The notes: a model not told the origin generated them from the letters alone. DNA of 64,000 nucleotides from Lentisphaeria bacterium (GCA_017455665.1 JAFSZN010000050.1:183-64182); one strand, 5' to 3'; shown: positions 32,498 to 46,086, numbered from the stretch's first letter. Numbers and translations: made by a program.

Positions 32498-34042
32498 ATG
32501 GACACGTCAGCATCGAGCCATAGCGGGAAATCCCCTGATTGGGGGGAGCTGCTGCATTGGTATCTGCTTGTTGTCCTTCTGCTGTTTTCACAACTGGTGA
32601 TCCTCACTCTTTTTGCGCTCTTCTGTATCCGGGCGACTGCAGGTCTATTCACCAAGTTTATCGAATTTGCATACGTGCGCCCCGTTGTGTGGCTCGTCCC
32701 GGTCTTATTTGGAGATGAGAATCATCTGGGGAACGTCCCGCTCGGCTTGGGAATGCTTCTCCTGGTCGTCATAATCTACGCCTTCCTCGGCGGCACGGTC
32801 GTCTATCTGATTCACAGACTTTCCCATGGAAAACGGATGCTGTCCTTTTTCTGTTGCGCGCTCGGTCTGCTCCTGTTCGCCGCCTGCGGCAAAAGCGAAC
32901 CCGAAGCGCCGGAATCTTCCGAAGGGAAAGCCGATTCCGTCGTTTTCACGCTGAAAGACGGCGTCGTGCTCGAAATGATCCGGGTTGAGCCCGGCACGTA
33001 CACGGTCGGACTGCCCCGGGCGGACCATCTGTGGCGGCCGGACATCGACCGGCGCGAGGTGACCGTGCCCGCGCCGTACTGGCTGGGCAAGTACGAGGTC
33101 ACGCAGGAACAATGGGAGGCCGTCATGAGCGGGGAGAAACGCCCCGAGGGGTTCGACCTGAGCAATCCGTCCTTGTACAAAGGGGAAAAGCGTCCTGTCG
33201 ACGCCGTGAACCGGAACGATGTGAACAGGTTCATCGAAAAACTGAACGCGCTCTGCGCTGACAAGCTCCCGGATGGATACCGGTTCGACCTGCCGGATCC
33301 GCTCCGGTGGGAGATCGCATGCCGCGCCGGGACGACCACGCGGATGCCGTGGGGCGACGATTCCAAACCGGAAGCTGCGAATCTGATCGCCATGGGGGAA
33401 TTGGAGAATAGCATCGACGACCTGAGTGAGGATGTTACATTCACGAATGCCGCGAAAACCCTCTTTTCCGCCGTAAAGGTGGGAATCGGTTCCAGAAACC
33501 GCCATGCATTCCGCAAGACGAGCGAAATCGGACAATACCCGCCGAACGCCTGGGGTTTCTGCGATATGATCGGGAATGTCGCGGAACTCTGCCGGGAGCG
33601 GCACACATATTCCGGCGGATACGGCGGACCGATGCAGAATGCGGCCGAAGTCACAGGCGAACTGCCGCCGGGAAATGATTATTACGAGCGGAAAACGGAC
33701 GAAACAGTCACGCATGGCGGCTCATGGTGGGATCCCGACTCGGTCATCAGCCCGGCAAACAGCTGCTGGCATCCGTATTACAACCACGCGCACCCGGAAC
33801 CTGTCTATGACAAAGTCACCGGGCATCATGTCGTGGGCTGGAAAGAATCCTGCATCGGGTTCCGTCTGGCGCTGGTGCCGGCCGGAACGACTGAAGTGGA
33901 AACGGTTAAAGGTGGAATGCCTGTTCATGCGGCAGGGCAGAGGACCAGAGAAAAGACGTTGGAACAGAACGCTGGATCGGGCGGCCGTGAGGTCTTTGGA
34001 TATCCTGTGAACGAAACGTCGCAAAACGGAGGTCAACAGTGA
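32498..34042 (+). CDS. FGE/SUMF1-domain (formylglycine-generating-enzyme fold) lipoprotein, in frame with an upstream 3-TM module
   Basis: Track ORF starts at 32222; a plausible ATG at 32498 has GGAG ~10 nt upstream. An internal ATG at 32837 gives the lipoprotein signal MLSFFCCALGLLLFAAC. FGE blocks YWLGKYEVTQEQWEAVM, NAWGFCDMIGNVAELC and HGGSWWD. Confidence 0.7.
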   Translation: MDTSASSHSGKSPDWGELLHWYLLVVLLLFSQLVILTLFALFCIRATAGLFTKFIEFAYVRPVVWLVPVLFGDENHLGNVPLGLGMLLLVVIIYAFLGGTVVYLIHRLSHGKRMLSFFCCALGLLLFAACGKSEPEAPESSEGKADSVVFTLKDGVVLEMIRVEPGTYTVGLPRADHLWRPDIDRREVTVPAPYWLGKYEVTQEQWEAVMSGEKRPEGFDLSNPSLYKGEKRPVDAVNRNDVNRFIEKLNALCADKLPDGYRFDLPDPLRWEIACRAGTTTRMPWGDDSKPEAANLIAMGELENSIDDLSEDVTFTNAAKTLFSAVKVGIGSRNRHAFRKTSEIGQYPPNAWGFCDMIGNVAELCRERHTYSGGYGGPMQNAAEVTGELPPGNDYYERKTDETVTHGGSWWDPDSVISPANSCWHPYYNHAHPEPVYDKVTGHHVVGWKESCIGFRLALVPAGTTEVETVKGGMPVHAAGQRTREKTLEQNAGSGGREVFGYPVNETSQNGGQQ

Positions 34043-34365
34043 ACGTGAATCCATCGAAAACGAACGGCAGAATCTTCCGGGAACTGTCGCGGTGGTGGTT
34101 CTGCTTCAGGTTCGTTCTGACGGTGCAGATCCTGTTCGTTTTCTGGCTGTTTTTTCTCGGCAATTTTATCAATCTGAACCGTATCGGTCAATTCCTGTAC
34201 GCAGGGGCGATTTCATGGCTCGGGAATCTGCTTTTCGATGACCCGTTCTGTGGCGATAACGTACTCGGTTTATTGATGTTTCTCCTGACGGTTATCCTCT
34301 ATTCCGTGATCGCCGGAACAGGATTATATCTGTTCCGCAGATACGTTTCACACGAAACGGAATGA
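34039..34365 (+). CDS. Small 3-TM membrane protein, paralogue of residues ~15-113 of the preceding ORF
   Basis: GTG start overlapping the upstream stop (GTGA), with GGAGG 6 nt upstream. LFDDPFCGDNVLGLLMFLLTVILYSVIAGTGLYLFRRYVSHE aligns with LFGDENHLGNVPLGLGMLLLVVIIYAFLGGTVVYLIHRLSHGK. Confidence 0.6.
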   Translation: MNVNPSKTNGRIFRELSRWWFCFRFVLTVQILFVFWLFFLGNFINLNRIGQFLYAGAISWLGNLLFDDPFCGDNVLGLLMFLLTVILYSVIAGTGLYLFRRYVSHETE

Positions 34366-34435
34366 CTGTGCCGCGCCGCATCATGTCATTCATCCGCAAA
34401 ACAGGGCAGGGGGAAACACATCCGGATGGAATATA

Positions 34436-35434
34436 TTACGGAAAGAATCCGCGCCATTCGCGCCATTTCGTTTCATTCATTTCCCATTCGCAGTACACCG
34501 CGATGCCGCGGATGTCCTCCCCCGGAGCCGCTGCCGAAATTCCCCTCAATGCCGAAATAATGTTTTCCACGCGCGGATGATGATACCCCACGCCGGCGTC
34601 CTCGTAGGCGGGGATCCCCAGCAGCAGATCGCATCCGGTCGAACGCAGGGACTCCGTCAGCTGAACCGTCCAGCGGGTCATCAGGCCGATGTAGCATTTT
34701 TCCAGCGGGATGGCGGTATCGTACATCATCACGGCCACCTGGTCGCAGCGGGCGGCGACGCTGCGCAGATACCCGGGACTCCAGTGAACATCCGGGAACC
34801 GATGCCATGCCGTCGGAGGCGGATACGCCGCCACGCTCAGTGTTTTGCGGGGGATCGCCGCGCGCAATTCATCCAGCAGCGTCAGAAAGTCCGTGTTCCC
34901 GTCCGGCATCGGCTCGATATTGACCTGAACGCCTGCGAGCCGGGGATGCGCGTTCAGAAGTTCCGATATGGAATCGACAAAACGCTTGCGCCACTCCCCG
35001 TCGGCAGGGCAGGCGGATTCGCCGAAGACGCCGCCCACCCACGGGATGACACGGATGCCGGACTGCCCGGCAAGATCGAGAAACCGTTCGGTCTGTTCAT
35101 GGTCGCAGCGCGCGATCGATCCGTCGGGCCGCGCCGGACACAGGTGCGGATAGACGATCGAAATCTTGTTGTCGGCAAGCCGACGGAAAAGCGCCGCGAT
35201 CTTCGATTCGCTGCGGAAGTCCGCACGATCAGCCTGTTTGCGCTCGAACCAGGCGTCGTCGCCGAGCCATCCGTGCCCGATCCAGATCGCGTTGTCGGAG
35301 TAATCGGGCAGGGGGGTGTCGCAGCCCGGATCCCAGAGCAGATAGCAGAGCGCCGCTCCGCCGAGGATCACGGTCAGGAGAAAGACGATCCGCAGCAGAC
35401 TTTTCCCGAACTTTTGGAACAGAACGTGTTTCAT
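34436..35434 (-). CDS. Membrane-anchored hypothetical protein, TIM-barrel glycosyl-hydrolase-like
   Basis: Track ORF is extended to 35533. The ATG at 35434 gives MKHVLFQKFGKSLLRIVFLLTVILGGAALCYLLW (anchor). The alternating beta/alpha pattern (IVYPHL, VIPWVGG, VQVNIEP, VAAYPP, VMMYDT) suggests a (beta/alpha)8 fold. Family not identified. Confidence 0.55.
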   Translation of the reverse strand: MKHVLFQKFGKSLLRIVFLLTVILGGAALCYLLWDPGCDTPLPDYSDNAIWIGHGWLGDDAWFERKQADRADFRSESKIAALFRRLADNKISIVYPHLCPARPDGSIARCDHEQTERFLDLAGQSGIRVIPWVGGVFGESACPADGEWRKRFVDSISELLNAHPRLAGVQVNIEPMPDGNTDFLTLLDELRAAIPRKTLSVAAYPPPTAWHRFPDVHWSPGYLRSVAARCDQVAVMMYDTAIPLEKCYIGLMTRWTVQLTESLRSTGCDLLLGIPAYEDAGVGYHHPRVENIISALRGISAAAPGEDIRGIAVYCEWEMNETKWREWRGFFP

Positions 35435-35756
35435 CGTTTGCTTGATTGTTTGCTTGACGGCATGATTTGCGAGGGAAACGGATGCTTCCTTGTGCTCGAA
35501 CAACTTGATGCGGCGGCAGATTGTCGAGCGCAACGAGTATTCCGAATTTTGAATACTATATCACGCTTTCTGCCGTTGTCAAGCCGGATTCAAGCCGGAT
35601 TCCGGAAAACAACATCTTGTCCTTTTGTCTCATTATGGACATATATATGTGTGTATCACCAATCAGGGCAGGGGGACACACACATGTATTATAAATCAGG
35701 ACAGGGGGCAAGTATAAAATAGTACGACAAATGATAATATACTCTTCGCCCCAATC

Positions 35757-35857
35757 TTTTGAAATGCGCGCCTCGCGGTAACGAAAAGAATAGACGCGTG
35801 CATCAGGCACGCTTACCTAGGCTTGCAAACAGCAAGCCCCCGGACGCAAAAGAATCC
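35757..35857 (+). repeat. DFR unit L1 (type A)
   Basis: GCGCGCCTCGCGGT box, hp1 GCGTGC-ATCAG-GCACGC and hp2 GGCTTGC-AAACA-GCAAGCC. hp3 is degraded (GGACGCAAAAGAATCC). A T-run and then GGGTAGGG at 35876 follow. Confidence 0.85.
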
Positions 35858-35931
35858 TTTCATTTTTTTTCTTTAGGGTAGGGGGCAAATACAGATTCGC
35901 CATCCTACTGTCAACCAATTATTTATAAATC

Positions 35932-36025
35932 TTTGCCGTTCGCGTCTCGCGGTCAAATAAAACTTATCAAGCTCAAGCGAGTATTCCGAGGCGAGCGGAT
36001 GCGAGCCCCCGGACGCATCGCGTCC
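35932..36025 (+). repeat. DFR unit L2 (type B)
   Basis: TTGCCGTTCGCGTCTCGCGGT box, a CAAGCGAGTATTCC segment, a degenerate hp2 and hp3 GGACGC-ATC-GCGTCC followed by TTATTCTTTTT. Confidence 0.85.
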
Positions 36026-36102
36026 TTATTCTTTTTGGATCAGGGCCGGGAGTAAAGTTTTATTTATCTGTTTCATTGATTCTTGTTCACATTCCCATTC
36101 CC

Positions 36103-36199
36103 TTGTTGTTCGCGTCTCGCGGTATCGTGAAAAAACATATCGAGCGCAGAGAATTTTCCGAGGCTTGCGAACAGCAAGCCCCCGGACGCGAACGCGTCC
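36103..36199 (+). repeat. DFR unit L3 (type B)
   Basis: TTGTTGTTCGCGTCTCGCGGT box, a TCGAGCGCAGAGAATTTTCC segment, hp2 GGCTTGC-GAACA-GCAAGCC and hp3 GGACGC-GAAC-GCGTCC. Confidence 0.85.
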
Positions 36200-36339
36200 A
36201 AAAAAGTCGAGCGTAGCGAGCATTCCGAGGCTCGCGAAAGCAAGCCCCTCGAACGCATCGCATCAAAACAAATAAAATCAGGGCAGGGGGGCAAGTATAA
36301 AATAGTACGACAAATGATAATATACTCTTCGCCCCAATC

Positions 36340-36440
36340 TTTTGAAATGCGCGCCTCGCGGTAACGAAAAGAATAGATGCGTGCATCAGGCACGCTTACC
36401 GAGGCTTGCGAACAACAAGCCCCCGGACGCGAACGCGTCC
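36340..36440 (+). repeat. DFR unit L4 (type A)
   Basis: Near-identical to L1 but with all three hairpins intact. Part of the 157-nt duplication 35692-35848 / 36274-36430. Confidence 0.9.
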
Positions 36441-36570
36441 AAATACATTTTTTCTTTCGGGCAGGGGTCAGATATGCTTTCCCATCTTCCTCCTCCTATA
36501 TTTGCCGTCGCGTCTCGCGGAAAATATATCGAAGGGCAGAGGAGAAATAATAATCTATTTTCCAGAATAT

Positions 36571-36666
36571 TTGAAATGCGCGCCTCGCGGTCAAATAAGA
36601 CATGTGTCGAGCACAGTGAGTATTCCTAGGCTTGCGAACAGCAAGCCCCCCGGACGCATCGCGTCC
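36571..36666 (+). repeat. DFR unit L6 (type B)
   Basis: GCGCGCCTCGCGGT box, a TCGAGCACAGTGAGTATTCC segment, hp2 GGCTTGC-GAACA-GCAAGCC and hp3 GGACGC-ATC-GCGTCC. Confidence 0.85.
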
Positions 36667-36917
36667 AAATCTATCATAACGTCAGCCACACAAAAAAACT
36701 CAATCTTTCTTCATTTCATCTTTTTGTTTGTGGCATGAAAAAACAACGGCTTCATATCCATAGAGCAGGGCGATGTTACGCTTTTTCCGTCACATGGACG
36801 CACTCAGAAAATCTCCTCTTCTTCCCAGGCGATTTAAGCGCATGATAACGACCGATACAGCTCTTCATCCGTCTCTGATTTATCCCCGTGTTAAATGGGC
36901 TTTGCGGCCCATTTATA

Positions 36918-36945
36918 ACGTCGCATAATATATATTATGTTAAAT
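36918..36945 (+). other. dif-like XerC/XerD chromosome-dimer resolution site
   Basis: ACGTCGCATAA-TATATA-TTATGTTAAAT versus E. coli dif GGTGCGCATAA-TGTATA-TTATGTTAAAT. The XerD arm matches 11/11, the inner 7 nt of the XerC arm are identical, and the spacer matches 5/6. Lies in an AT-rich ORF-poor gap. A 9-bp-stem hairpin (36892-36915, TAAATGGGC/GCCCATTTA) abuts it. Confidence 0.75.
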
Positions 36946-37665
36946 CGAGTACGCTCAAAAGGGCGAACCAAGACATTTATATTGTCCTATAGACAAATGG
37001 ATTGCGGCGTGTGTACAATCCGATTGTCAACAACTTTTTAACAACTTTTGACAATTGACATCATTTTGGACCACAGCCCTGGAAAAACGGTCATCGGTTC
37101 CAAAGCAGTTTCGAGACAACAAAAAATATTTCGTTAATGGGTCGAAGGAACTTGATAGATTTGTTTTCATCATCGTGATTCGGACCGCCCATGTGTTGCC
37201 GAACGGGAAAGAACTTTTTTCGTCGAACATTCTGAATTTGGTCCATTTTTCACGGGCAGGGCATGGCAAAAGCCGTTTTTACCCCCTCGCCTGAGGTCAT
37301 TTTTTTTAGAAGGTGAGAACGATGAAAATTTTTGGGGTCTTTGGGGAGGTTGTCACGAGTTCGGTCTTGTTCGATTTTTTGATGTTTTGGATATAATATT
37401 CTCTGAAAACATGCCAATCTTTTCAAAACATCTTGTGTGTCCAAATGGGGGGGCGTTTACTTTCGGAATAGGGGCTGAGGAGAATTTGCGTCTGATGTTT
37501 TGAGCTCACTTTACTCCCCTACCCTATTGAAAAAGAGACATGTAGATACAAAATATGCCTTTTATCTTCTGCCAGGAAGAAGGAATAAATCAATAGTTTC
37601 TTTTCTTGTGTTTCTGTTTCATAATCCAATGCAGAATGATTACTTGTATTTCGAACAATCTTTTT

Positions 37666-37765
37666 GGACGCATTTGCGTCCGGGGGGCTTGCATTCGCAA
37701 GCCTCGGTAAGCGTGCCTGATGCACGCATCTTTTTTTTATTAACGCGAGACGCGCGAATCAAAAG
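37666..37765 (-). repeat. DFR unit R1 (type A, inverted)
   Basis: Reading the + strand: GGACGC-ATTT-GCGTCC, then GGCTTGC-ATTC-GCAAGCC, then GCGTGC-CTGAT-GCACGC, then ATCTTTTTTTTATT, then AACGCGAGACGCGCG. Confidence 0.9.
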
Positions 37766-37928
37766 GGTGGAGATATTCTTAGGTCGTATACTGTTTGATG
37801 ACGTTATACTTCTTTTCTTGTTACCGCGAGACGCGCAATGCTGAGTAGCGGGAAGAAACAGTGCGTTCATACAGAGCAGACAGCGAATCCATAATCCTAT
37901 GCCCCCTGCCCTAAATTTGACCAAATCA

Positions 37929-38027
37929 GGACGCATTCGCGTCCGGGGGGCTTGCATTCGCAAGCCTCGGTAAGCGTGCCTGATGCACGCATCTTATTTT
38001 CCCATTACCGCGAGACGCGAACGGCAA
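37929..38027 (-). repeat. DFR unit R3 (type A, inverted)
   Basis: Same three hairpins, followed by TACCGCGAGACGCGAACGGCAA, the exact reverse complement of the L2 box TTGCCGTTCGCGTCTCGCGGT. Confidence 0.9.
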
Positions 38028-38532
38028 TTTAAAAGTTAAACATTTCTTCTCACAAGATACAACAATGCAATGAAGGATTACAGGTGACCGCGAGACGCGA
38101 TAAACAAAGTCCTTTTGTGAACTCCCCGGAGACGAGAAATAATAGAAAAGGTTCAGGTTACCGCGAGACGCGCAAGTCAAATTATTCTTTAAAAGTAAGA
38201 TGTGTTTTTTGACAGACCATACAACTGACTTATCCGTTTTTGTTTCGTCTTTCGCCTTCATTAATCTTCAGTACAAAATAGCCTGACAAAGAAAGATCGA
38301 ACGGGGATTCATCCTATGTCTTTCAAGACCTCTTTGAATGATTCCGTGCGAACGGGTGACGGGTCCAGTTCACGTCGTCACCGGGGCGGGGAATCGGGGC
38401 ACAATGAATATTATTATCGTTTTTTGAACTCAAAATACCCCGCCGCCCCTGTCGTATATCGGATTTTTCCGCAAAAAAACAGATCGACTCTTGTTTTTTT
38501 GATTAAGATGGGGTATAATAATTATAAATCTC

Positions 38533-39246
38533 ATGTCTTGTCGCCTCGACTGGAGGATGCCGTCCGTGTACAAAACCGTTTTTTACAATGAAGACGATAA
38601 TATCCGTCTGACCAGGTATTGGTCATCCAAAGACGGGAAACTGATCCTGGATATCCACTCCGTCGGCGCGGAAGAGTATCCCGGACCGAAAGGCAATATC
38701 CAGTTCGATGCCGGGGTATGGTTCGCATACAACGTCTTCGACCGGGACGGACGCATCAAAGTGTCCTATGAGGCGGATGAACCGGACGACCGTTATCCCG
38801 ATGCGTACTGGAGTGTCAATGTGACTTATTTTTACGGCTTTACGGACGAAACGGTCCTGAAAAGCTGTTTCCGGATCCTCATGGACCGGGATTTCCGGAT
38901 CACGAAACGGACCATGGAAGACCTCGAGCTGCGCGATCTGGACGGTCTCCATGTCTTTTACGGGAAACGCCCGAAGTTCCTGCAGCGATACCGGGACGGG
39001 AAAAAGACCGGCGCCAACAGGTATTGTGACGACAAGCGGCTGCAGCAGTTCATCGAAATCGACCATGCCGATTACGCCGGACCGATCGACGTCTCCAGCC
39101 GCGGCTGCCGCAGGATCGAATGCGACGATGCGTTCAAATCGAAGCTTCTCAAATTCGACCGGCTGGTCTTTTATATCAAAAAGGTTTTTCTTGATCCGAC
39201 CTCCAAGTATTATCAAACGCCCCCTGCCCCGGAGAACGGAAAATGA
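38533..39246 (+). CDS. Hypothetical protein, possibly YwqK/MORN-like repeats
   Basis: 237 aa; an alternative start exists at 38557. Gly/Tyr-punctuated beta-hairpin-like repeats (FYGKRPKFLQRYRDGKKTGANRYCDDKRLQQFIEI). Ends with the tail YYQTPPAPENGK shared with the two downstream paralogues. Confidence 0.5.
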   Translation: MSCRLDWRMPSVYKTVFYNEDDNIRLTRYWSSKDGKLILDIHSVGAEEYPGPKGNIQFDAGVWFAYNVFDRDGRIKVSYEADEPDDRYPDAYWSVNVTYFYGFTDETVLKSCFRILMDRDFRITKRTMEDLELRDLDGLHVFYGKRPKFLQRYRDGKKTGANRYCDDKRLQQFIEIDHADYAGPIDVSSRGCRRIECDDAFKSKLLKFDRLVFYIKKVFLDPTSKYYQTPPAPENGK

Positions 39247-39431
39247 TGTTGGGGATACAGGGCACCTCTAAAAATTGGTTTCCGACGGCTTTTCGCGTCC
39301 GGTTTGCTCCTCCCTGACCTGACCAATCAGCATCAAAAAATATGTTTTTTCGCTTGCATTCCTGGGCGAGACGGTGTATAATAAATCAATAATAAAAATC
39401 CAGTTCCGTTCAAACAAATCAGAATATTCTC

Positions 39432-40820
39432 ATGCCGGACAGTCGCACCACGCACAACATAATCTTTTCGAGCATTGGCGTCTTCCTGATCGCCGCAGTC
39501 GTTTTGATCCTGCTGGCAATCCCCCGGGACGATCTTTCACTCGGCAGGATATCGAGGCTTCCCGTGATCCGCCTCTTCATTTCTCCGAATCCCGAACGGG
39601 CCGAAAGATTGTATCTTGCAGGACTCGACCTTGTCGAATACGACAAACAACAGGCGATCGAGTACATCCGGATGGCGGCGGAACTCGGCAATGTGCCGGC
39701 TCAATCCGCGCTCGGGTCTTTCTATTTCAACGGAGACGGCGTCGAACAGGATGCCGCCGAAGCCGTGAAATGGTTCCGCAAGGCGGCGGATCAGGGATTC
39801 CCCGAGGCGCAATCCAACCTCGGAATCAGTTACATAAAAGGCAGGGGCGTCGAACAGGACACCGCCGAGGCCGTGAAATGGTTCCGCAAGGCGGCGGACC
39901 TGGGATTTTCTCCCGCGCAGAACAATCTGGGGCTGTACTGTCTTGAAAACGGCCGGGAGGCAGAGGGGGTCGAACTGTTCCGCAAGGCGGCGGAATACGG
40001 ACTTGCCTCGGCGATGCATAACCTCGCGTTTTGTTATGGCGAAGGCCGCGGCGTCGAAAAGGATCCTGCAGAGGAACGGAAATGGTACCGCAAAGCCGCG
40101 GAACAGGGATACGTCAATTCTCAGTTCAACCTTGGCACGCTCTATTATTCCGAAAAGGGTGACGAGAACCTGAAAGAAGCGGCGAAATGGTACCACATGA
40201 CGGCGGATCAGGGGCTCGCGCAAGGGGAACTCATGCTTGGAGCATTCTATCTGAACGGCATGGGCGTCGAACAGGATATGGCGGAGGCGGTCAAATGGTT
40301 CCGCCTGGCGGCGGATCAGGGTGAAGAGTATGCGGAATACTCGCTCGGCGAGTGTTACAAGAACGGTTACGGCGTCCCACAGGATATGGCGGAGGCGGCG
40401 AAATGGTACCGCTTGGCGTCGGATCAGGGGCTTTCCTACGCTCAATGCGCGCTCGCGTTCTGTTATCGGAACGGGACCGGCGTGCCGAAGGATCCCGCCG
40501 TGGCGGACAAGCTTATCAACGAAGCCATGCCGAAACTGCGCGCGGCCGCGGAACAGGGCGACGCCGAGGCGCAGATGTGGATGGGGAGATGCTACGAAGA
40601 CGGATTCGGAGCGGAAAAGGACGAGCCGAAAGCCATCGAATGGTATCGCAAAGCCGCGGAACAGGACCATGCGGATGCCCAATATTCGCTCGCGCTGATC
40701 CTCAAACGGAACGGAGACGCGGACGAAGCGGAGACGCTGCTTCGCAAGGCTGCCGAATTCGGACATCCGGAAGCGAAAAAACTCCTCGATGTACCCGGTC
40801 AAACAGACCGGAAGCCATAG
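39432..40820 (+). CDS. Membrane-anchored Sel1 (SLR/TPR-like) repeat protein
   Basis: N-terminal TM IIFSSIGVFLIAAVVLILLAI, then about ten 36-aa repeats of the form AEAVKWFRKAADQG...AQ.NLG..Y..G.GV.QD. Confidence 0.85.
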   Translation: MPDSRTTHNIIFSSIGVFLIAAVVLILLAIPRDDLSLGRISRLPVIRLFISPNPERAERLYLAGLDLVEYDKQQAIEYIRMAAELGNVPAQSALGSFYFNGDGVEQDAAEAVKWFRKAADQGFPEAQSNLGISYIKGRGVEQDTAEAVKWFRKAADLGFSPAQNNLGLYCLENGREAEGVELFRKAAEYGLASAMHNLAFCYGEGRGVEKDPAEERKWYRKAAEQGYVNSQFNLGTLYYSEKGDENLKEAAKWYHMTADQGLAQGELMLGAFYLNGMGVEQDMAEAVKWFRLAADQGEEYAEYSLGECYKNGYGVPQDMAEAAKWYRLASDQGLSYAQCALAFCYRNGTGVPKDPAVADKLINEAMPKLRAAAEQGDAEAQMWMGRCYEDGFGAEKDEPKAIEWYRKAAEQDHADAQYSLALILKRNGDADEAETLLRKAAEFGHPEAKKLLDVPGQTDRKP

Positions 40821-40831
40821 GGACAGACAAG

Positions 40832-41524
40832 ATGGAATTATCATCCGGGCGAACGAATGAGATCCTGGGGCCGTGGCGGATCGGCTGGCTGGTCCTTGCC
40901 GCCGCGCTGGCTTCGGCGTACCTGGGGCCTTCGGTCGCGCCGATCGCCGGATATGTGGATTCGTGTGTTTTGGTGCTTTTCCTGTTCTGCGGAGCGGCAT
41001 TCATCGTCCTGTCGGTCTTCACGTTTGTCTGTTACATCCTCGTCGCTCCGTTTCCGGCGTTCTTCCGCCGGGACATCATTCCGTCGTGTTTCCGCCGCAA
41101 CAAAGACGGCACGCCGAAGGTCGCCAGGACGGTTTCCGTTTCGGAGGAATGCCTTTCAAAGATGGAAGACTCTTACGGCCGCGGGGTCGCATTCGATCAG
41201 ATCGTCGTTTATCCCGTTCTGATCTTCCTGTTTGTTCATTATATCTTGACGCGCGGATATGAGGATTATATGAACTGGCGCGATCCGAACGATTACGGGT
41301 TCTACTGGTATCCGGTGTTGTTCGCCGTCCTCTCGATCCCGTGGCATCTGCTCTATGCGTGGCGGAGCGGACGGCATTGTCCGTACTGCCTGACGCCGCG
41401 CACGAAAGACAACTTCGACCTCGAGCATCACGTCTGCATGCGGTGCCATACCCACTTCGTCGCGGGAAACGAAACCGAAACACCAAACGAAACGTCCCCG
41501 GCCCCGGAGGAGAACGGGAAATGA
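40832..41524 (+). CDS. Polytopic membrane protein with C-terminal CPxC...CxxC zinc ribbon (paralogue 1)
   Basis: Track ORF 40352.. is over-extended; the ATG at 40832 gives 230 aa with about 4 TM helices. C-terminus IPWHLLYAWRSGRHCPYCLTPRTKDNFDLEHHVCMRCHTHF and tail SPAPEENGK. Confidence 0.7.
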   Translation: MELSSGRTNEILGPWRIGWLVLAAALASAYLGPSVAPIAGYVDSCVLVLFLFCGAAFIVLSVFTFVCYILVAPFPAFFRRDIIPSCFRRNKDGTPKVARTVSVSEECLSKMEDSYGRGVAFDQIVVYPVLIFLFVHYILTRGYEDYMNWRDPNDYGFYWYPVLFAVLSIPWHLLYAWRSGRHCPYCLTPRTKDNFDLEHHVCMRCHTHFVAGNETETPNETSPAPEENGK

Positions 41525-42213
41525 GAATCAAAGCCCATCATTTATCCATCCAAAGGCTCTTTTTTATCGTGGGACCGTGGCGGATCGCGTCGCTCGCGTT
41601 TGCCGCATTCGGATTTCTTTCTCCGGATGCATTTTATGGGATCGCCGTCCCTCTCGTTATTGCCGTATTCGGTTTCAGCTGCGTGATCCTGTTCGGACTG
41701 ATCATCTTCGTGCCCGCCGAACTGATCGCGGATCTGACCAACGGCAGACGGGGCAGATGTTTCCACGCGGACTTGCGCGAATTGACCGGAAAGAAGAAAC
41801 AGGACCGCCAGCCGATGATCTTCAGGACGTATCCCGTGCCGGAAAGCTGGCTGGCGAAGATGGAAAATCTTACCAGTCACTGGGAAGGATTCCTCCAGAC
41901 TTTTGTTTTCCCCGCGATGATCGTCGGGTTGATTGCGAACTGCATGCACGGCTATGACAGATGGTTCGACTTCCATTATCCGATGCTGCCCTACGGATAC
42001 TTTACCTTCGAGGCGGCGTTCATTGCACTCGGAATCCCGTGGCATCTGCTCTATGCGTGGCGGAGCGGACGGCATTGTCCGTACTGCCTGACGCCGCGCA
42101 CGATCGACAACTTCGACCTCGAGCATCACGTCTGCATGCGGTGCCATACCCGGTTCATCGCGGAAAACGAAAACAAACTTGAGCCGCCCCCTGCCCCGGC
42201 GGACAAAGCATAA
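41521..42213 (+). CDS. Polytopic membrane protein with C-terminal zinc ribbon (paralogue 2)
   Basis: ATGA overlap with paralogue 1. Also exactly 230 aa with the same C-terminal block (…PRTIDNF…CHTRF) and tail PPPAPADKA. The N-terminal two-thirds are strongly diverged. Confidence 0.7.
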   Translation: MRIKAHHLSIQRLFFIVGPWRIASLAFAAFGFLSPDAFYGIAVPLVIAVFGFSCVILFGLIIFVPAELIADLTNGRRGRCFHADLRELTGKKKQDRQPMIFRTYPVPESWLAKMENLTSHWEGFLQTFVFPAMIVGLIANCMHGYDRWFDFHYPMLPYGYFTFEAAFIALGIPWHLLYAWRSGRHCPYCLTPRTIDNFDLEHHVCMRCHTRFIAENENKLEPPPAPADKA

Positions 42214-42337
42214 GAAAAAGCGCCCTGCCCGAAGCCGCCTTCCATATTGAGGAAAACTGCTCCGGACAGGACGCCCGGTCATGGCGGGATCCCGGATCGA
42301 ACGGGACACCCGTTCCATGATCTGAGATCGAGGGGAC

Positions 42338-42724
42338 TTACAGCGTATTCAGCCCGAGGTCACCACCTCCTCTGCTCTGATGTGACAGACGGCGGAGCGC
42401 CTTCTTCGCGGTCCGTCTTCTGTGGCGGAGAGGCCTGCCGAGCCGGACGGGCAGCAGATACCGCCGCGCGGTGCGATCCGCCACGTGAAGTCTCTGCGCG
42501 ATGACGGTGGGGTTGCCCACCCTCTCGTAGTAGAACATCTTGTAGGCGGCCCAGCGTTTCGGCTCCCGGCTTGCCCAGTCCGCCAGCAGGATCATCCGCC
42601 GCAGCGTTTCGGTTCCCGGCATGTCATTCTTTTTCCACGAGGCGGTGTCGTATTCCGCCTCGCGCAGGATCTGGTCCATACCGATGCCATGATCTGAACC
42701 GATCTCTTCGTTGTATTCACTCAT
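42338..42724 (-). CDS. Small HTH protein, sigma-70 region-4-like (putative transcription regulator)
   Basis: 128 aa. YKMFYYERVGNPTVIAQRLHVADRTARRYL resembles a region-4/LuxR-type HTH, with a basic C-terminal tail. Family not identified. Confidence 0.45.
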   Translation of the reverse strand: MSEYNEEIGSDHGIGMDQILREAEYDTASWKKNDMPGTETLRRMILLADWASREPKRWAAYKMFYYERVGNPTVIAQRLHVADRTARRYLLPVRLGRPLRHRRRTAKKALRRLSHQSRGGGDLGLNTL

Positions 42725-42978
42725 GATAACGTCCGCATCTTTCTTCCGTTTACGTTTTTATGGATGGGGTACATGTTCAATAAGGTGGATGTGTCTGGGG
42801 ATTCTGTCGTACAATTGTACGACACATCGGGCGGCGAGCGGTTCATGCGCGGTCCTTTCTTTTCGAGATTTGAAGTGTATGATTCGATGCCGGATCCGGG
42901 CGCCTGAATCCGTTTGCGGAGGCATCCTCCCGAATCCGGGAAAATATAGTACGTATCCCAGCCAAAGTCAAGCTCAAA

Positions 42979-43019
42979 TTGAAACTTTTCTGAAACTTTA
43001 TTGAAACTAGTTTCAATAA
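42979..43019. promoter_or_regulatory. Phased TGAAAC hexamer array ending in a 10-bp inverted repeat
   Basis: TGAAAC at 42980, 42991 and 43002 (11-bp phasing), plus an inverted GTTTCA at 43010. TTATTGAAAC-TA-GTTTCAATAA is a perfect palindrome (42998-43019). Lies between the divergent HTH gene and yjbQ. Confidence 0.4.
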
Positions 43020-43180
43020 AACATCTCACAAATCTGATCGTCAAAAAGAAAGAATCAAGGATCAGCCCTGCCCTGTCCGGCACAAAAACCGCTTCACGCG
43101 CTTGCAAACAGGGATCGCGCGCAGTATATTATTTGTCGGAAACGAATCAAACAAGCATCCATCGAAAGGAACCATCCATC

Positions 43181-43582
43181 ATGGCAGAATTCTTCGTCAA
43201 GACCAGCCGTCACTGCGAGATCATCGACATCACCGAGGACGTCAACCGCGTGCTGCCGCAGTCCATGGCGTGCGGCATGTGCCACATCTACTGCCCCCAC
43301 ACGACCGCCGGGATCACGATCAACGAGAACGCCGACCCGGACGTGAAGCACGACGTGCTGCAGAAACTCTCCTCGCTCATCCCGCACGACGAGGCGTATT
43401 ACCAGCACTGCGAGGGCAACAGCGACGCGCATCTGAAGGCGATCCTGACCGGATTCTGCCAGACCGTGCCGTTCCGCAACGGACGTCTTGAGCTCGGCAC
43501 CTGGCAGGGCATCTATTTCTGCGAGTACGACGGACCGCGTACGCGCCGTGTGAAAGTCTACTTCGAACCTGCACAGGATTGA
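43181..43582 (+). CDS. yjbQ: YjbQ/UPF0047-family protein (secondary thiamine-phosphate synthase-like)
   Basis: Track ORF is over-extended; the ATG at 43181 gives 133 aa. HTTAGITINENADPDV and EGNSDAHLKA are typical of the family. Confidence 0.85.
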   Translation: MAEFFVKTSRHCEIIDITEDVNRVLPQSMACGMCHIYCPHTTAGITINENADPDVKHDVLQKLSSLIPHDEAYYQHCEGNSDAHLKAILTGFCQTVPFRNGRLELGTWQGIYFCEYDGPRTRRVKVYFEPAQD

Positions 43583-43619
43583 CCCCTCCCCTGCCCTGCT
43601 TCTTCCTCAAAAAGAATCT

Positions 43620-43662
43620 CCCCTGCCCCGGAATCATATTCGAGGCAGGGGTTCGTTTTTTT
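43620..43662 (+). terminator. Rho-independent terminator
   Basis: CCCCTGCC/GGCAGGGG stem with a 16-nt loop, followed by TTCGTTTTTTT. Confidence 0.6.
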
Positions 43663-43782
43663 AGCCTGTATACATAAAAAGCCCGTAGAAAGCATTTACG
43701 GCTTTCCACGGACTGTTGTGGCAACCTGATTCCTTGTGCCCGAGCGAAGCCGGGCACTGCCGCAGTGGAGGCGTTCGCCTCC

Positions 43783-46086
43783 TTAGCTCTTCTTTTCCGC
43801 CGAAGCGGCGGCGGCGTTCTGCTCGCGGATCGCGGCGCGGCGGATCTTGCCGTTGACGGTCTTCGGGAGCTCGGCGACGAACTCGATGATGCGCGGATAT
43901 TTGTACGGCGCGGTATGCGTCTTGACGTAGTTCTTGATCTCTTCCTTGAGCTCGTCGCTGCCTTCCTTGCCCTTCACGAGCACGATGGTGGCTTTCACGA
44001 CCTTGCCCCGGACGGGATCCGGCACGCCGGTCACGGCGCATTCGAGGATGTACGGCAGCTCCATGAGGACGCTTTCGACCTCGAACGGGCCGACGCGGTA
44101 GCCGGACGTCTTGATGATGTCGTCGGCGCGTCCCTGGTACCAGAAGTAGCCGTCCTCGTCCTGCCACGCCTGGTCGCCGGTGTGGTAGTAGCCGTCGTGC
44201 CAGACTTTCTGTGTGTCCTCGGGATTCTTGACGTACTGGCAGAAGAGTCCGCACGGATGATCGTCCGGCTCCGCCTTCACGCAGATCTCGCCGGTCTCGC
44301 CGGTCTTGACCGGATTGCCTTCGGGATCGAGCAGGACGACCTCGTACTGCGGATTCGGGCGGCCCATGGAGCCGGGACGCGGCTTCATGTCGGCGAGCGT
44401 GGCGATGGTGAGCGTGGTCTCGGTCTGTCCGAATCCTTCGTACGGGAGCTGGCCGGAGACGCGCGCGAACGCCTCGCTGACCTCGGCGGGCATCGCCTCG
44501 CCGGCGGTGGTGACGTGTTCGAGCGTGGAGAAGTCGACGTGGGAGAGGTCTTCCTTCACGAGGAAACGGAAGATGGTCGGCGGCGCGCAGAACGTGGTGA
44601 TGCCGTACTGCTTGAACATCGGGAGCAGGTCGGCGGCGTGGAAACGGTCGAAGTCGAAGGTGAAGACGCCGGCTTCGCAGAGCCACTGTCCGTAGATCTT
44701 GCCCCAGAGCGCCTTGCCCCAGCCCGTGTCGGCGACCGTGAAGTGGAGGCCGTCGGGGTTGACCTTGTGCCAGTGGCGCGCGGTCATGATGTGCCCGAGC
44801 GGATACGCGTGGTCGTGCTCGACCATCTTCGGATAGCCGGTCGTGCCGGAGCTGAAGAAGACGAGCAGCGGATCGGTGGTCTTGTGGCCGGCGGGACGCT
44901 GGAAGACGGGCGGGAAGTTCGGATACAGGGCGTCGAGGTCGAGCCAGCCGTCCTTCTGTCCGTTGACCGTGAGCTTGAGCGTCATCCCGGTCACGGCGGC
45001 GGCCTCGTCGACTTCCTTCGTGATGTTGCCGTCGGCGGAGCAGACCACATAGCGGATGTCCGCCTTCTTGAAACGGTATTCGAAGTCGTGCGCGGTCATC
45101 TGGCAGGAGGCCGGGACGGCGACGGCGCCGATCATGTGGAGCGCGTTCAGCACAAACCAGAACTGGTAGTGGCGTTTCATCACCAGCATCACGCGGTCGC
45201 CCTTGCGGATCCCGAGGGAATGCAGCAGGTTCGCGCAGCGCATGGCGTTTTCGGAGATGTCGCGGAACGTGAAGTCGCGGCAGACTTTGTCCTTGGAGAC
45301 CCACTTCATGGCGATCTTGTCCGGGCACTCGGCGGCGAGGCGGTTCACCACGTCGAACGCGAAGTTGAAGTCGTCCGGCACATGGAAACGCACGTTCTTC
45401 AGCGTGCCGTCCGGGTTCCACTCCTCCTCCATGTACTCCTGGTACAGCAGACGGCGGGCGCCGGTCGGGGGTTCCTTGACCACGGGCTGCGGCACGAACG
45501 CGAACCGGTCGGGCTTTTCGTCGTCGTATTTGCTGTGCATGACGATGGAGAGGAACTTGCAGGGCTTGCCGTTGGCGGCCTGCATGGCGTGCGCCTCGCG
45601 GCCGTCGAAATAGATGCTGTCGCCCTCGTTCAGGACTTCCTCCTTGCCGTGCAGGAAGACCCTCAGCGAACCGGACAGGATCAGGACGAATTCCTGGCCG
45701 TTGTGCTCGGAATACTGAAGCGGCTCGTTCTCGCCGGCGGGCGGAGCGGTGACGATGAACGGCTCGCCGGTGCGGTCCTTCATGCGGATCGCCTGGTGCA
45801 GATAGGAGAACTCGGGGCGGCGGACGAAGGGGAAGCCCTCGCCGCTGCGCGTGACGGTATACAGGGCCAGGTTCGGAGCTTCGCCGCTGATGACGGAGGA
45901 GACGTCCAGTCCGAAGTGTCCTGCCAAGTTGTAGTAGAACGAGAACGGCGCCTGTTTGGCTCCGCTTTCGAACAGGGAGTATTCCTCCGGCGTGACGCCG
46001 AGGAGTTCCGCCATCTGTTCGACGGTGAAGTTTTTCTGAGCCCTGAGCTCACGGACTCTCATGGAGATCTGTTCTTTGTTTTCCAT
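43783..46086 (-). CDS. Fusion protein: XRE-type HTH + cupin + AMP-forming acyl-CoA synthetase (medium-chain/ACSM-like)
   Basis: 767 aa. HTH (ISMRVRELRAQKNFTVEQMAELLGVTPEEYSLFESG). Cupin (GQEFVLILSGSLRVFLHGKEEVLNEGDSIYFDGREAHAM). Adenylation motifs FFSSGTTGYPKMV, EGFGQTE, YHTGDQA, GRADDIIKTSGYRVGPFEVE and PKTVNGKIRR. The 870-aa + strand ORF is a shadow. Confidence 0.85.
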   Translation of the reverse strand: MENKEQISMRVRELRAQKNFTVEQMAELLGVTPEEYSLFESGAKQAPFSFYYNLAGHFGLDVSSVISGEAPNLALYTVTRSGEGFPFVRRPEFSYLHQAIRMKDRTGEPFIVTAPPAGENEPLQYSEHNGQEFVLILSGSLRVFLHGKEEVLNEGDSIYFDGREAHAMQAANGKPCKFLSIVMHSKYDDEKPDRFAFVPQPVVKEPPTGARRLLYQEYMEEEWNPDGTLKNVRFHVPDDFNFAFDVVNRLAAECPDKIAMKWVSKDKVCRDFTFRDISENAMRCANLLHSLGIRKGDRVMLVMKRHYQFWFVLNALHMIGAVAVPASCQMTAHDFEYRFKKADIRYVVCSADGNITKEVDEAAAVTGMTLKLTVNGQKDGWLDLDALYPNFPPVFQRPAGHKTTDPLLVFFSSGTTGYPKMVEHDHAYPLGHIMTARHWHKVNPDGLHFTVADTGWGKALWGKIYGQWLCEAGVFTFDFDRFHAADLLPMFKQYGITTFCAPPTIFRFLVKEDLSHVDFSTLEHVTTAGEAMPAEVSEAFARVSGQLPYEGFGQTETTLTIATLADMKPRPGSMGRPNPQYEVVLLDPEGNPVKTGETGEICVKAEPDDHPCGLFCQYVKNPEDTQKVWHDGYYHTGDQAWQDEDGYFWYQGRADDIIKTSGYRVGPFEVESVLMELPYILECAVTGVPDPVRGKVVKATIVLVKGKEGSDELKEEIKNYVKTHTAPYKYPRIIEFVAELPKTVNGKIRRAAIREQNAAAASAEKKS

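Follow-up and report, generated by a model that had tools for sequence, protein, structure and literature searches.

Gene conversion between tandem genes for predicted zinc-ribbon membrane proteins at a variable locus beside a dif-like site in rumen Victivallales

Genes of the locus and the A/B protein family

We analyzed a 64-kb stretch of DNA (hereafter the window; 64,000 nucleotides (nt), with positions counted from its first letter) deposited as Lentisphaeria bacterium, GCA_017455665.1, and describe here a locus at positions 38533-42213 in which two adjacent genes, A and B, encode strongly diverged membrane proteins that share a near-identical patch of 118 nt. The window is from an uncultured rumen Lentisphaerae/Victivallales bacterium, its nearest species genomes being the rumen "uncultured Lentisphaerae" RUG555 (L004 in the numbering used here for related loci and genomes) and Victivallales metagenome-assembled genomes (MAGs). 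Four open reading frames (ORFs) lie on the plus strand, as a sequence-only reading of this stretch had reported. A (40832-41524) encodes a type-A protein of 230 amino acids (aa) with four predicted transmembrane (TM) helices and a C-terminal CPYC-x15-CxRC zinc ribbon, and B (41521-42213) encodes its type-B paralog, also of 230 aa. Translation confirmed both lengths and the ATGA junction at which the ATG of B overlaps the TGA of A, and the two genes are considered translationally coupled.

Upstream of A, g2 (39432-40820) encodes a membrane-anchored Sel1-repeat protein of 462 aa, in agreement with its earlier description. It has a single N-terminal TM helix (residues 10-28) and 10 repeats, which match Sel1 (PF08238) with 276.9 bits against a 30.7-bit cut-off (E = 6.9e-85), and it reaches no NCBIfam equivalog threshold (184 bits for MerG against a 350-bit cut-off, and likewise for the others). 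The first gene, g1, which the ORF listing and translation place at 38533-39246, encodes a predicted soluble orphan protein of 226-237 aa ending in PPAPENGK. Its candidate start codons are ATG 38533, ATG 38557, and GTG 38566, the last preceded by GGAGG nine nt upstream; since the homologs of g1 start with MYKTVFY, the equivalent of which in the window is GTG 38566, the actual product is probably the 226-aa form that starts there. The earlier label of a YwqK/MORN-like protein had to be given up: g1 matched no Pfam or NCBIfam family at E < 0.1, YwqK/MORN included, and its AlphaFold2 (AF2) model, which has beta-hairpins in the N-terminal half, is unusable, with a predicted local distance difference test score (pLDDT) of 41. 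No TM segment was found in g1, its 30 homologs all come from the same clade, and the ratio of its nonsynonymous to synonymous divergence (dN/dS) is ~0.23.

The 185-nt gap between g1 and g2 contains a promoter-like element, TTGCAT-17-TATAAT (39354-39382, plus strand), which was read from the sequence; a consensus promoter scan missed it, its -35 hexamer matching at 3/6 positions. Both hexamers are retained in L011, which lacks g1 and in which the surrounding 120 nt are 77.5% identical. The gap and the retained element indicate that the locus probably consists of two transcription units in the window, g1 and Sel1-A-B. The TATAAT upstream of g1 was likewise not called by the consensus scan, and the TTGATT/TATAAT pair near g1, having a spacer of 9 nt, was rejected as a canonical promoter.

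The A/B family comprises 25 clusters among 5.8 billion proteins, and an exhaustive profile search retrieved 8 representatives among 1.84 billion, with no distant relatives. A and B showed no significant family in Pfam, NCBIfam, PADLOC, or PHROGs, and all 24 A/B-family members gave only sub-threshold zinc-finger noise against Pfam. The family profile had 0 matches among Protein Data Bank (PDB) sequences, and a Foldseek search of the PDB with the AF2 model of B returned no match below E = 3. Nothing was found in phage genomes by tblastn of B and g1, nor in viral contigs by a scan for the A/B family. By these searches, A/B is an orphan family confined to a few closely related species. A survey of other genomes had been proposed in the sequence-only reading; relatives occurred solely in the same narrow clade, with a variable neighborhood.

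Four cysteines near the C-terminus (C186, C189, C205, and C208) are invariant in 24 sequences, and the two CxxC knuckles with a short hydrophilic spacer between them, present family-wide, are consistent with a predicted Cys4 zinc ribbon; the Pfam zinc-ribbon models stayed below threshold on this region (E = 0.003-0.05). Hydropathy, the positive-inside rule, and the AF2 helices together suggest four TM helices in an N-in/C-in arrangement, with a basic loop of ~50 aa and the CPYC-x15-CxRC ribbon on the cytoplasmic side and two very short loops in the periplasm. The AF2 model of B (pLDDT 62) shows the membrane helices, then a small strand-containing element, and a final helix. A ZAS-type (zinc-binding) anti-sigma factor was considered and rejected, as the Cys motif is C-terminal (HCPYC ... 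CxRCH) instead of the N-terminal HxxxCxxC, and none of the six genes tested matched a sigma-factor family.

A recent gene-conversion tract between A and B

The patch lies at 41336-41453 in A and at 42034-42151 in B, both on the plus strand, where it spans the end of TM4, the linker, and the zinc ribbon. The two copies are identical at 116/118 nt, as first noticed, in exact runs of 70 and 46 nt split by two adjacent mismatches. Before the patch, the proteins share only ~25-30% identity, so that the strong upstream divergence described earlier also stands, while identity reaches 85% in the zinc ribbon. Synonymous divergence (dS) was estimated from codon alignments of the four genomes having both A and B, with the module defined as 117 nt (IPWHLL...CHT). 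Over the first ~180 codons, A and B are saturated in all four genomes (dS 1.3-1.9, dN ~0.75), indicating that the duplication is older than these species. In the window, the patch has a dS between A and B of 0.02, against a saturated 1.34 in the remainder; the alignment of both genes along their length that had been proposed as a check therefore gave a divergence that is far from uniform. The corresponding module values in the other genomes are 0.31 (L004), 0.39 (L005), and 0.75 (L006).

Comparison with related strains places the homogenization within the lineage of the window. The B module of the window differs from the resident A module at 2/117 positions, and from its orthologs at 9 (L014) and 14 (L004). 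Thirteen sites within the patch distinguish A from B in the sister genome L014; 11 of them are homogenized in the window, as compared with 16/248 sites outside the patch (Fisher p = 1.2e-10). The direction was from A to B at 41357-41419 and from B to A at 41438-41446, with 41406-41407 left unconverted, and the tract sequences group by genome rather than by orthology (Fisher p = 1.2e-10 and 5.7e-18), window B being nearest to window A. The patch is thus the product of recent gene conversion between the tandem copies, which was patchy, ran in both directions, and postdates the split from RUG555 and L014. Two explanations had been offered earlier for the mosaic conservation, gene conversion and a nucleotide-level constraint, and the data above bear out the first.

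The second explanation would have the identity of the patch maintained by a requirement at the DNA or RNA level, for example for a regulatory site within both genes or for a structured RNA. It is true that, in every paralog pair, nucleotide conservation is highest in the zinc-ribbon module (78-100% in sliding windows). However, modules differ by a dS of 0.28-0.83 across orthologs and paralogs, with orthologs reaching 0.83, and by up to 27-33/117 nt family-wide, so that no single sequence is required and the synonymous divergence between orthologs excludes a fixed nucleotide requirement. An Rfam scan of 33000-44000 found nothing, and the homogenization is specific to the strain, being absent from the sister genomes L014 and L004. 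We therefore consider this explanation very improbable. Still less probable, to the point of being nearly negligible, is an assembly or binning artifact in the form of a repeat collapse or a chimeric contig. The window is indeed metagenome-derived, and short-read assemblers can mis-join repeats, but the exact B protein is present on three independent metagenome assemblies from different samples (L001-L003), which encode A with 99.3-99.6% identity, and L001 is nucleotide-identical to the window over both 117-nt modules. This concordance argues against an artifact, as do the unique flanks that anchor the 118-nt tract on both sides of both copies and the graded intermediate states seen in related genomes; the assembly collapse that had been named earlier as a possible refutation is accordingly not supported.

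Older exchanges are also recorded in the family. A "native" B module, one codon shorter (..FS-RRGKR..), is still found in L005_B, L006_B, several metagenome alleles, and class C, one of the allelic types described below. In the lineage of the window, L004, and L014, an earlier conversion or allelic replacement had exchanged the native module of B for an A-like one, to which the module of L005_A is closest. Mosaics of several kinds occur: in L010_A, an A-type N-terminus goes together with the tail of L005_B; in L013, the N-terminus is B-type and the module and tail are A-type; L028-L031 combine a B-like linker with an N-terminus of type A; and L005_A/L004_B is a further mosaic. Some of these likenesses between genomes, such as that of L004_B to L005_A, may reflect exchange between strains and not intragenomic conversion, which weighs against reading every one of them as the latter.

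The dif-like site, tail repeats, and variable gene content

The locus is the first coding unit to the right of a dif-like XerC/D site, ACGTCGCATAATATATATTATGTTAAAT (36918-36945, plus strand), which lies 1.6 kb upstream of g1 in a 3.2-kb non-coding gap and gives substance to the "terminus gap" of the sequence-only reading. This site matches Escherichia coli dif at 23/28 positions, with 11/11 in the XerD arm. It occurs once in the window; seven related loci have the identical 28-mer, and L009 has a variant with two mismatches. A search of the 64-kb window at <=10 mismatches revealed no second dif-like site. The octamer GGGCAGGG is present in 20 copies against 2.3 expected (~8.5-fold over-represented). 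Copies between 14434 and 37254 are on the plus strand and those between 37904 and 54685 on the minus strand, so that 18 are directed toward dif and 2 away from it. Seven other species together have 38 plus and 0 minus copies to the left of dif and 7 plus and 56 minus copies to the right, or 94 toward dif and 7 away. The earlier description of a KOPS-like octamer (KOPS, FtsK orienting polar sequence) agrees with this enrichment and polarity, and we regard the two elements as the dif-like site and a candidate FtsK-orienting octamer of rumen Victivallales.

In E. coli, GGGNAGGG octamers guide FtsK to the 28-bp XerCD site (PMC2680272, PMC3384302). Similarly, GGGCAGGG fits this consensus (PMC2680272, PMC3384302), is over-represented, and switches strand near the dif-like 28-mer, the XerD arm of which is identical to that of E. 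coli. In contrast to the E. coli system, the host phylum is Lentisphaerae, the polarity counts of the window cover 64 kb rather than whole replichores, and one conserved octamer has the wrong orientation: the copy at 37254-37261, 300-700 nt to the right of dif, is non-permissive and is kept in every related species examined, with equivalents in L005-L011. A non-coding core of ~250 nt around the dif-like 28-mer (36807-37055) is 74-86% identical in seven related species and has no Rfam match. The gap as a whole (35335-38533) is AT-rich and full of hairpin repeats resembling repetitive extragenic palindromic (REP) elements (GGACGC..GCGTCC, GGCTTGC..GCAAGCC, and CGCGAGACGCG); their orientation is mirrored on either side of dif, and they yield several of the octamers with the strongest polarity relative to dif (CCGGACGC, 18/2; GCGTCTCG, 12/1).

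The same octamer recurs in the coding tails of the locus. The C-terminal tails of g1, A, and B, with the peptides PPAPENGK, SPAPEENGK, and PPAPADKA, are encoded by a direct repeat of ~20 nt (repeat family D18) on the plus strand. The g1 copy, CGCCCCCTGCCCCGGAGAAC (39218-39237), contains the reverse complement of GGGCAGGG at 39222-39229. The A copy, CGTCCCCGGCCCCGGAGGAG (41493-41512), carries GGAGGAG ~10 nt before the ATG of B and has lost the octamer through a change of CCT to CCG. The B copy, CGCCCCCTGCCCCGGCGGAC (42185-42204), has the octamer at 42189-42196, and another lies just past the stop codon at 42223-42230. All three Pro-rich tails noted earlier are present, with one correction: the KOPS-like complement CCCTGCCC occurs in the g1 and B tails, and the A tail reads CCCCGGCCCC instead. 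Relative to dif, the tail octamers of g1 and B are in the permissive orientation.

Several features favor roles of the tail at the DNA level. Pro-Ala-Pro is encoded as CCT GCC CCG in 15/17 tails, CCT making up 5% of the Pro codons in local genes, and in the g1 allele of L012 the octamer persists although it is translated in another frame, as PLPRRTKHE. In non-terminal tails, the PAPE codons CCG GAG/GAA give GGAG or GGAA ~10 nt before the next ATG, and in other genomes g1 is joined to the following gene by the same ...CCCCTGCCCCGGA(A/G)...ATGA junction as A and B. PAPE is found in the non-terminal A/B-family genes of 7/9 genomes (the window, L005, L006, L013, L018, L020, and L021), the exceptions being L004_A and L014_A, which read PAPAE, and most g1 tails also have PAPE; none of the terminal A/B-type genes has it, these ending in PAPA, PAPT, PAPS, or a variant, or without a tail. 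The CCT usage, the frame-shifted allele, and the restriction of PAPE lead us to favor a tail repeat that would double as polar octamer and ribosome-binding site of the following gene. Two observations would allow for a contribution of the tail at the protein level as well. The class C relatives, which lie away from dif, end in PPVPESC with no GGGCAGGG within 16 kb; and, in a small comparison (n = 3), four-fold sites are only slightly less variable in the tail (0.08) than in the module (0.18). The g1 tail is itself variable among alleles, several of which are frame-shifted or truncated: at 39239-39271, a 1-nt indel separates the window, in which g1 ends in ..PAPENGK*, from the otherwise near-identical strains L001 and L002, in which it ends in ..PAPENENEVGDIGHL*.

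To the right, the locus borders on a conserved flank (g5, yjbQ, and an XRE-cupin-acyl-CoA synthetase gene) that is syntenic in every relative examined and evolves slowly (dS ~0.2, dN/dS ~0.08). The gene content to the left of this flank, by contrast, differs among ~20 genomes in the presence of g1, Sel1, A, and B, the arrangements being g1-A-B, g1-A, g1-B, A alone, A-B, Sel1-A, g1-Sel1-A-B, g1-B'-B, and g1-5.5-kb insert-A. A Sel1 gene occurs at this locus in the window strain, RUG555 (L004), and L011 only. Judged from this distribution, the Sel1 gene is a lineage-specific insertion, and there is no single ancestral four-gene operon; the operon of the sequence-only reading is a species-specific arrangement of variable content into which Sel1 was inserted with its own promoter-like element. 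The N-terminal part of A has a dN/dS of 0.3-0.5 and a dS of up to 0.67, about three times the species background, which indicates that the alleles are older than the species or have been exchanged among them. In L007 (4485-9915), the 5.5-kb insertion between g1 and A contains ORFs of 659 aa, 522 aa, 345 aa, and ~130 aa, the 345-aa product having a hydrophobic N-terminus with a cysteine and possibly being a lipoprotein. In L011 (8599-9983), the Sel1 gene upstream of A appears to be split into two frames, which may reflect a frameshift or pseudogene or else an assembly error.

We think it rather probable that recombination in the conserved module and the tail repeats is what reshuffles the variable N-terminal cassettes: homologous recombination in these shared segments would duplicate, delete, and rearrange them. 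Another explanation for the variability is that g1, A, and B were carried in by a mobile element that used XerC/D to integrate at dif (an integrative mobile element exploiting Xer, IMEX), with the differences among genomes reflecting gain and loss of the element. The locus does lie directly beside dif in every genome whose contig reaches dif, and its content does vary, including the L007 insert and the Sel1 insertion. Nevertheless, the 64-kb window contains neither a second dif-like site nor an extra XerD arm; no integrase, replication, or phage genes were seen, and the phage and viral-contig collections gave no match. Furthermore, the octamers inside the locus carry the permissive orientation of the host, and the class C relatives adjoin an rRNA operon, not dif. 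A mobile element is therefore improbable. Taken as a whole, and apart from the function of the proteins, the DNA-level account of a variable dif-adjacent locus shaped by gene conversion appears likely.

The conserved flank begins with g5 (42338-42724, minus strand), a gene of 128 aa convergent with A/B that belongs to the flank and not to the variable locus. It has 78 homologs without Pfam domains, a dN/dS of ~0.22, and a syntenic position in all loci examined; like g1, it showed no significant family in Pfam, NCBIfam, PADLOC, or PHROGs. The small helix-turn-helix (HTH) gene described earlier as divergent is thus a real and conserved ORF, although its orientation is convergent with A/B and its HTH_29 match is below threshold (E = 0.028). 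Upstream of g5, the phased TGAAAC array of that description was recovered as three TGAAAC copies with 11-nt spacing, followed by the palindrome TTGAAACTAGTTTCAA (42980-43016, plus strand). In six species, this element is almost unchanged, in contrast to its variable flanks. Located between the divergent promoter-like sites of g5 and yjbQ, it borders directly on the -35 hexamer of the predicted g5 promoter (42971-42943, minus strand). It is plausibly a regulator-binding site for g5 or for the divergent yjbQ. At 43783-46086 (minus strand) lies a 767-aa fusion of an XRE-type HTH, a cupin, and an AMP-binding acyl-CoA synthetase that is 96-99% identical across all related species. The locus as a whole is flanked by metabolic genes (FGE-sulfatase, AP endonuclease-like, yjbQ, and acyl-CoA synthetase).

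Possible function and comparison with known systems

The A/B family falls into deep allelic types A, B, and C, whose membrane parts are synonymously saturated while the zinc-ribbon module stays alike, and most of the variability falls in TM2, TM3, and the N-terminus. Deep alleles, presence/absence and copy-number variation, and a raised dN/dS were all found, a pattern that fits a specificity determinant of an immunity-like or exclusion-like kind. From the predicted N-in/C-in topology, the zinc ribbon would be a shared docking module facing the cytoplasm, and specificity would reside in the diversifying TM part. Class C relatives (L015 7254-14860; L017) are next to an rRNA operon; after them come three Sel1-repeat genes in a row and genes for four small TM proteins, one of which ends in ..KEAPAPR. 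The association with Sel1 is thus seen in a second, independent context. We tentatively raise the possibility that A and B are immunity-like or exclusion-like proteins, which may work with g1 and membrane-anchored Sel1 proteins.

A number of observations weigh against such a function. No toxin or secretion gene was found in the stretches examined (window ~31.5-52 kb and related loci), just as the sequence-only reading had seen no toxin gene, so that its comparison with an immunity/effector island is matched by the polymorphism and not by the surrounding genes. There was no PADLOC match for g1, A, B, or g5, and g2 had a repeat-level match to PtuA only. Known immunity proteins do not typically have a conserved zinc ribbon in the cytoplasm. 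Sel1 genes recur in these loci, and their adjacency could be due to chance; g1 is not beside the A/B family in L006, L011, L028, L030, and L031; and both AF2 models are of low confidence. A literature search on Sel1 in rumen Victivallales turned up nothing relevant.

A different possibility is a lineage-specific membrane module that serves signaling or assembly and is unrelated to conflict; A and B would then associate as a hetero-oligomer, and conversion would preserve the fit of their zinc ribbons. The conservation of the ribbon (85% between A and B) and the translational coupling of the two genes are in line with this, as are the coupling of g1 through the same ATGA junction and the membrane-anchored, adaptor-type Sel1 proteins that adjoin in two contexts. 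However, many genomes carry A only or B only, meaning that a hetero-oligomer is not obligatory, and allelic divergence deeper than the species, with a dN/dS of 0.3-0.5, is unusual for a fixed structural partner. We consider this module rather unlikely. Returning to immunity-like or exclusion-like alleles, a more inclusive and correspondingly more speculative scheme, unlikely to hold in all its parts, is that a dif-proximal cassette locus exploits near-terminus recombination, yielding a population-level repertoire of such membrane alleles in rumen Victivallales. The tail repeat would then serve at once as protein tail, ribosome-binding site, and FtsK-orienting octamer, and the module and tail would provide the homology for swapping.

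The locus offers a clean, datable case of segmental concerted evolution in an uncultured phylum, and its analysis delineates a membrane zinc-ribbon family that had not been named before, together with its allelic types. The dif-like site and the candidate FtsK-orienting octamer can be used to orient and check assemblies of rumen Victivallales MAGs. With the family restricted to a few closely related species, the biology is at present of local interest; if the polymorphism reflects conflict between strains or with phages, the locus would be a new kind of specificity determinant.

Three known systems are instructive for comparison. Bacterial Sel1-like repeat (SLR) adaptors (PF08238) include ExoR, MotX, and AlgK. 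Like these, g2 has canonical Sel1 repeats, placed behind an N-terminal membrane anchor, but it differs in falling below every equivalog threshold. Arrays of small polytopic immunity proteins directed against membrane-acting toxins are known from the immunity proteins of pore-forming colicins and from orphan immunity arrays. A and B resemble them as small multi-TM inner-membrane proteins encoded by tandem divergent paralogs with presence/absence and copy-number polymorphism and with variation concentrated in the TM helices; they are unlike them in having a zinc ribbon, in the lack of a toxin or secretion gene in the examined stretches, and in having no PADLOC, Pfam, or structural match.

Partial gene conversion is known between tandem or dispersed bacterial paralogs, as in tufA/tufB, opa, and pilE/pilS. 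As in those systems, a sharp tract of near-identity with dS near 0 lies inside diverged paralogs, the events are recurrent, and the tree of the module conflicts with that of the rest of the gene. Unlike in those systems, only the C-terminal module is homogenized here and the variable part is the N-terminal four-TM domain, in a locus that has no silent-cassette arrangement and no sign of programmed variation. Gene conversion itself is thus well known; what is new is the A/B family and the coincidence, within one locus, of a homogenized module, a tail repeat, a coupling site, and a polar octamer.

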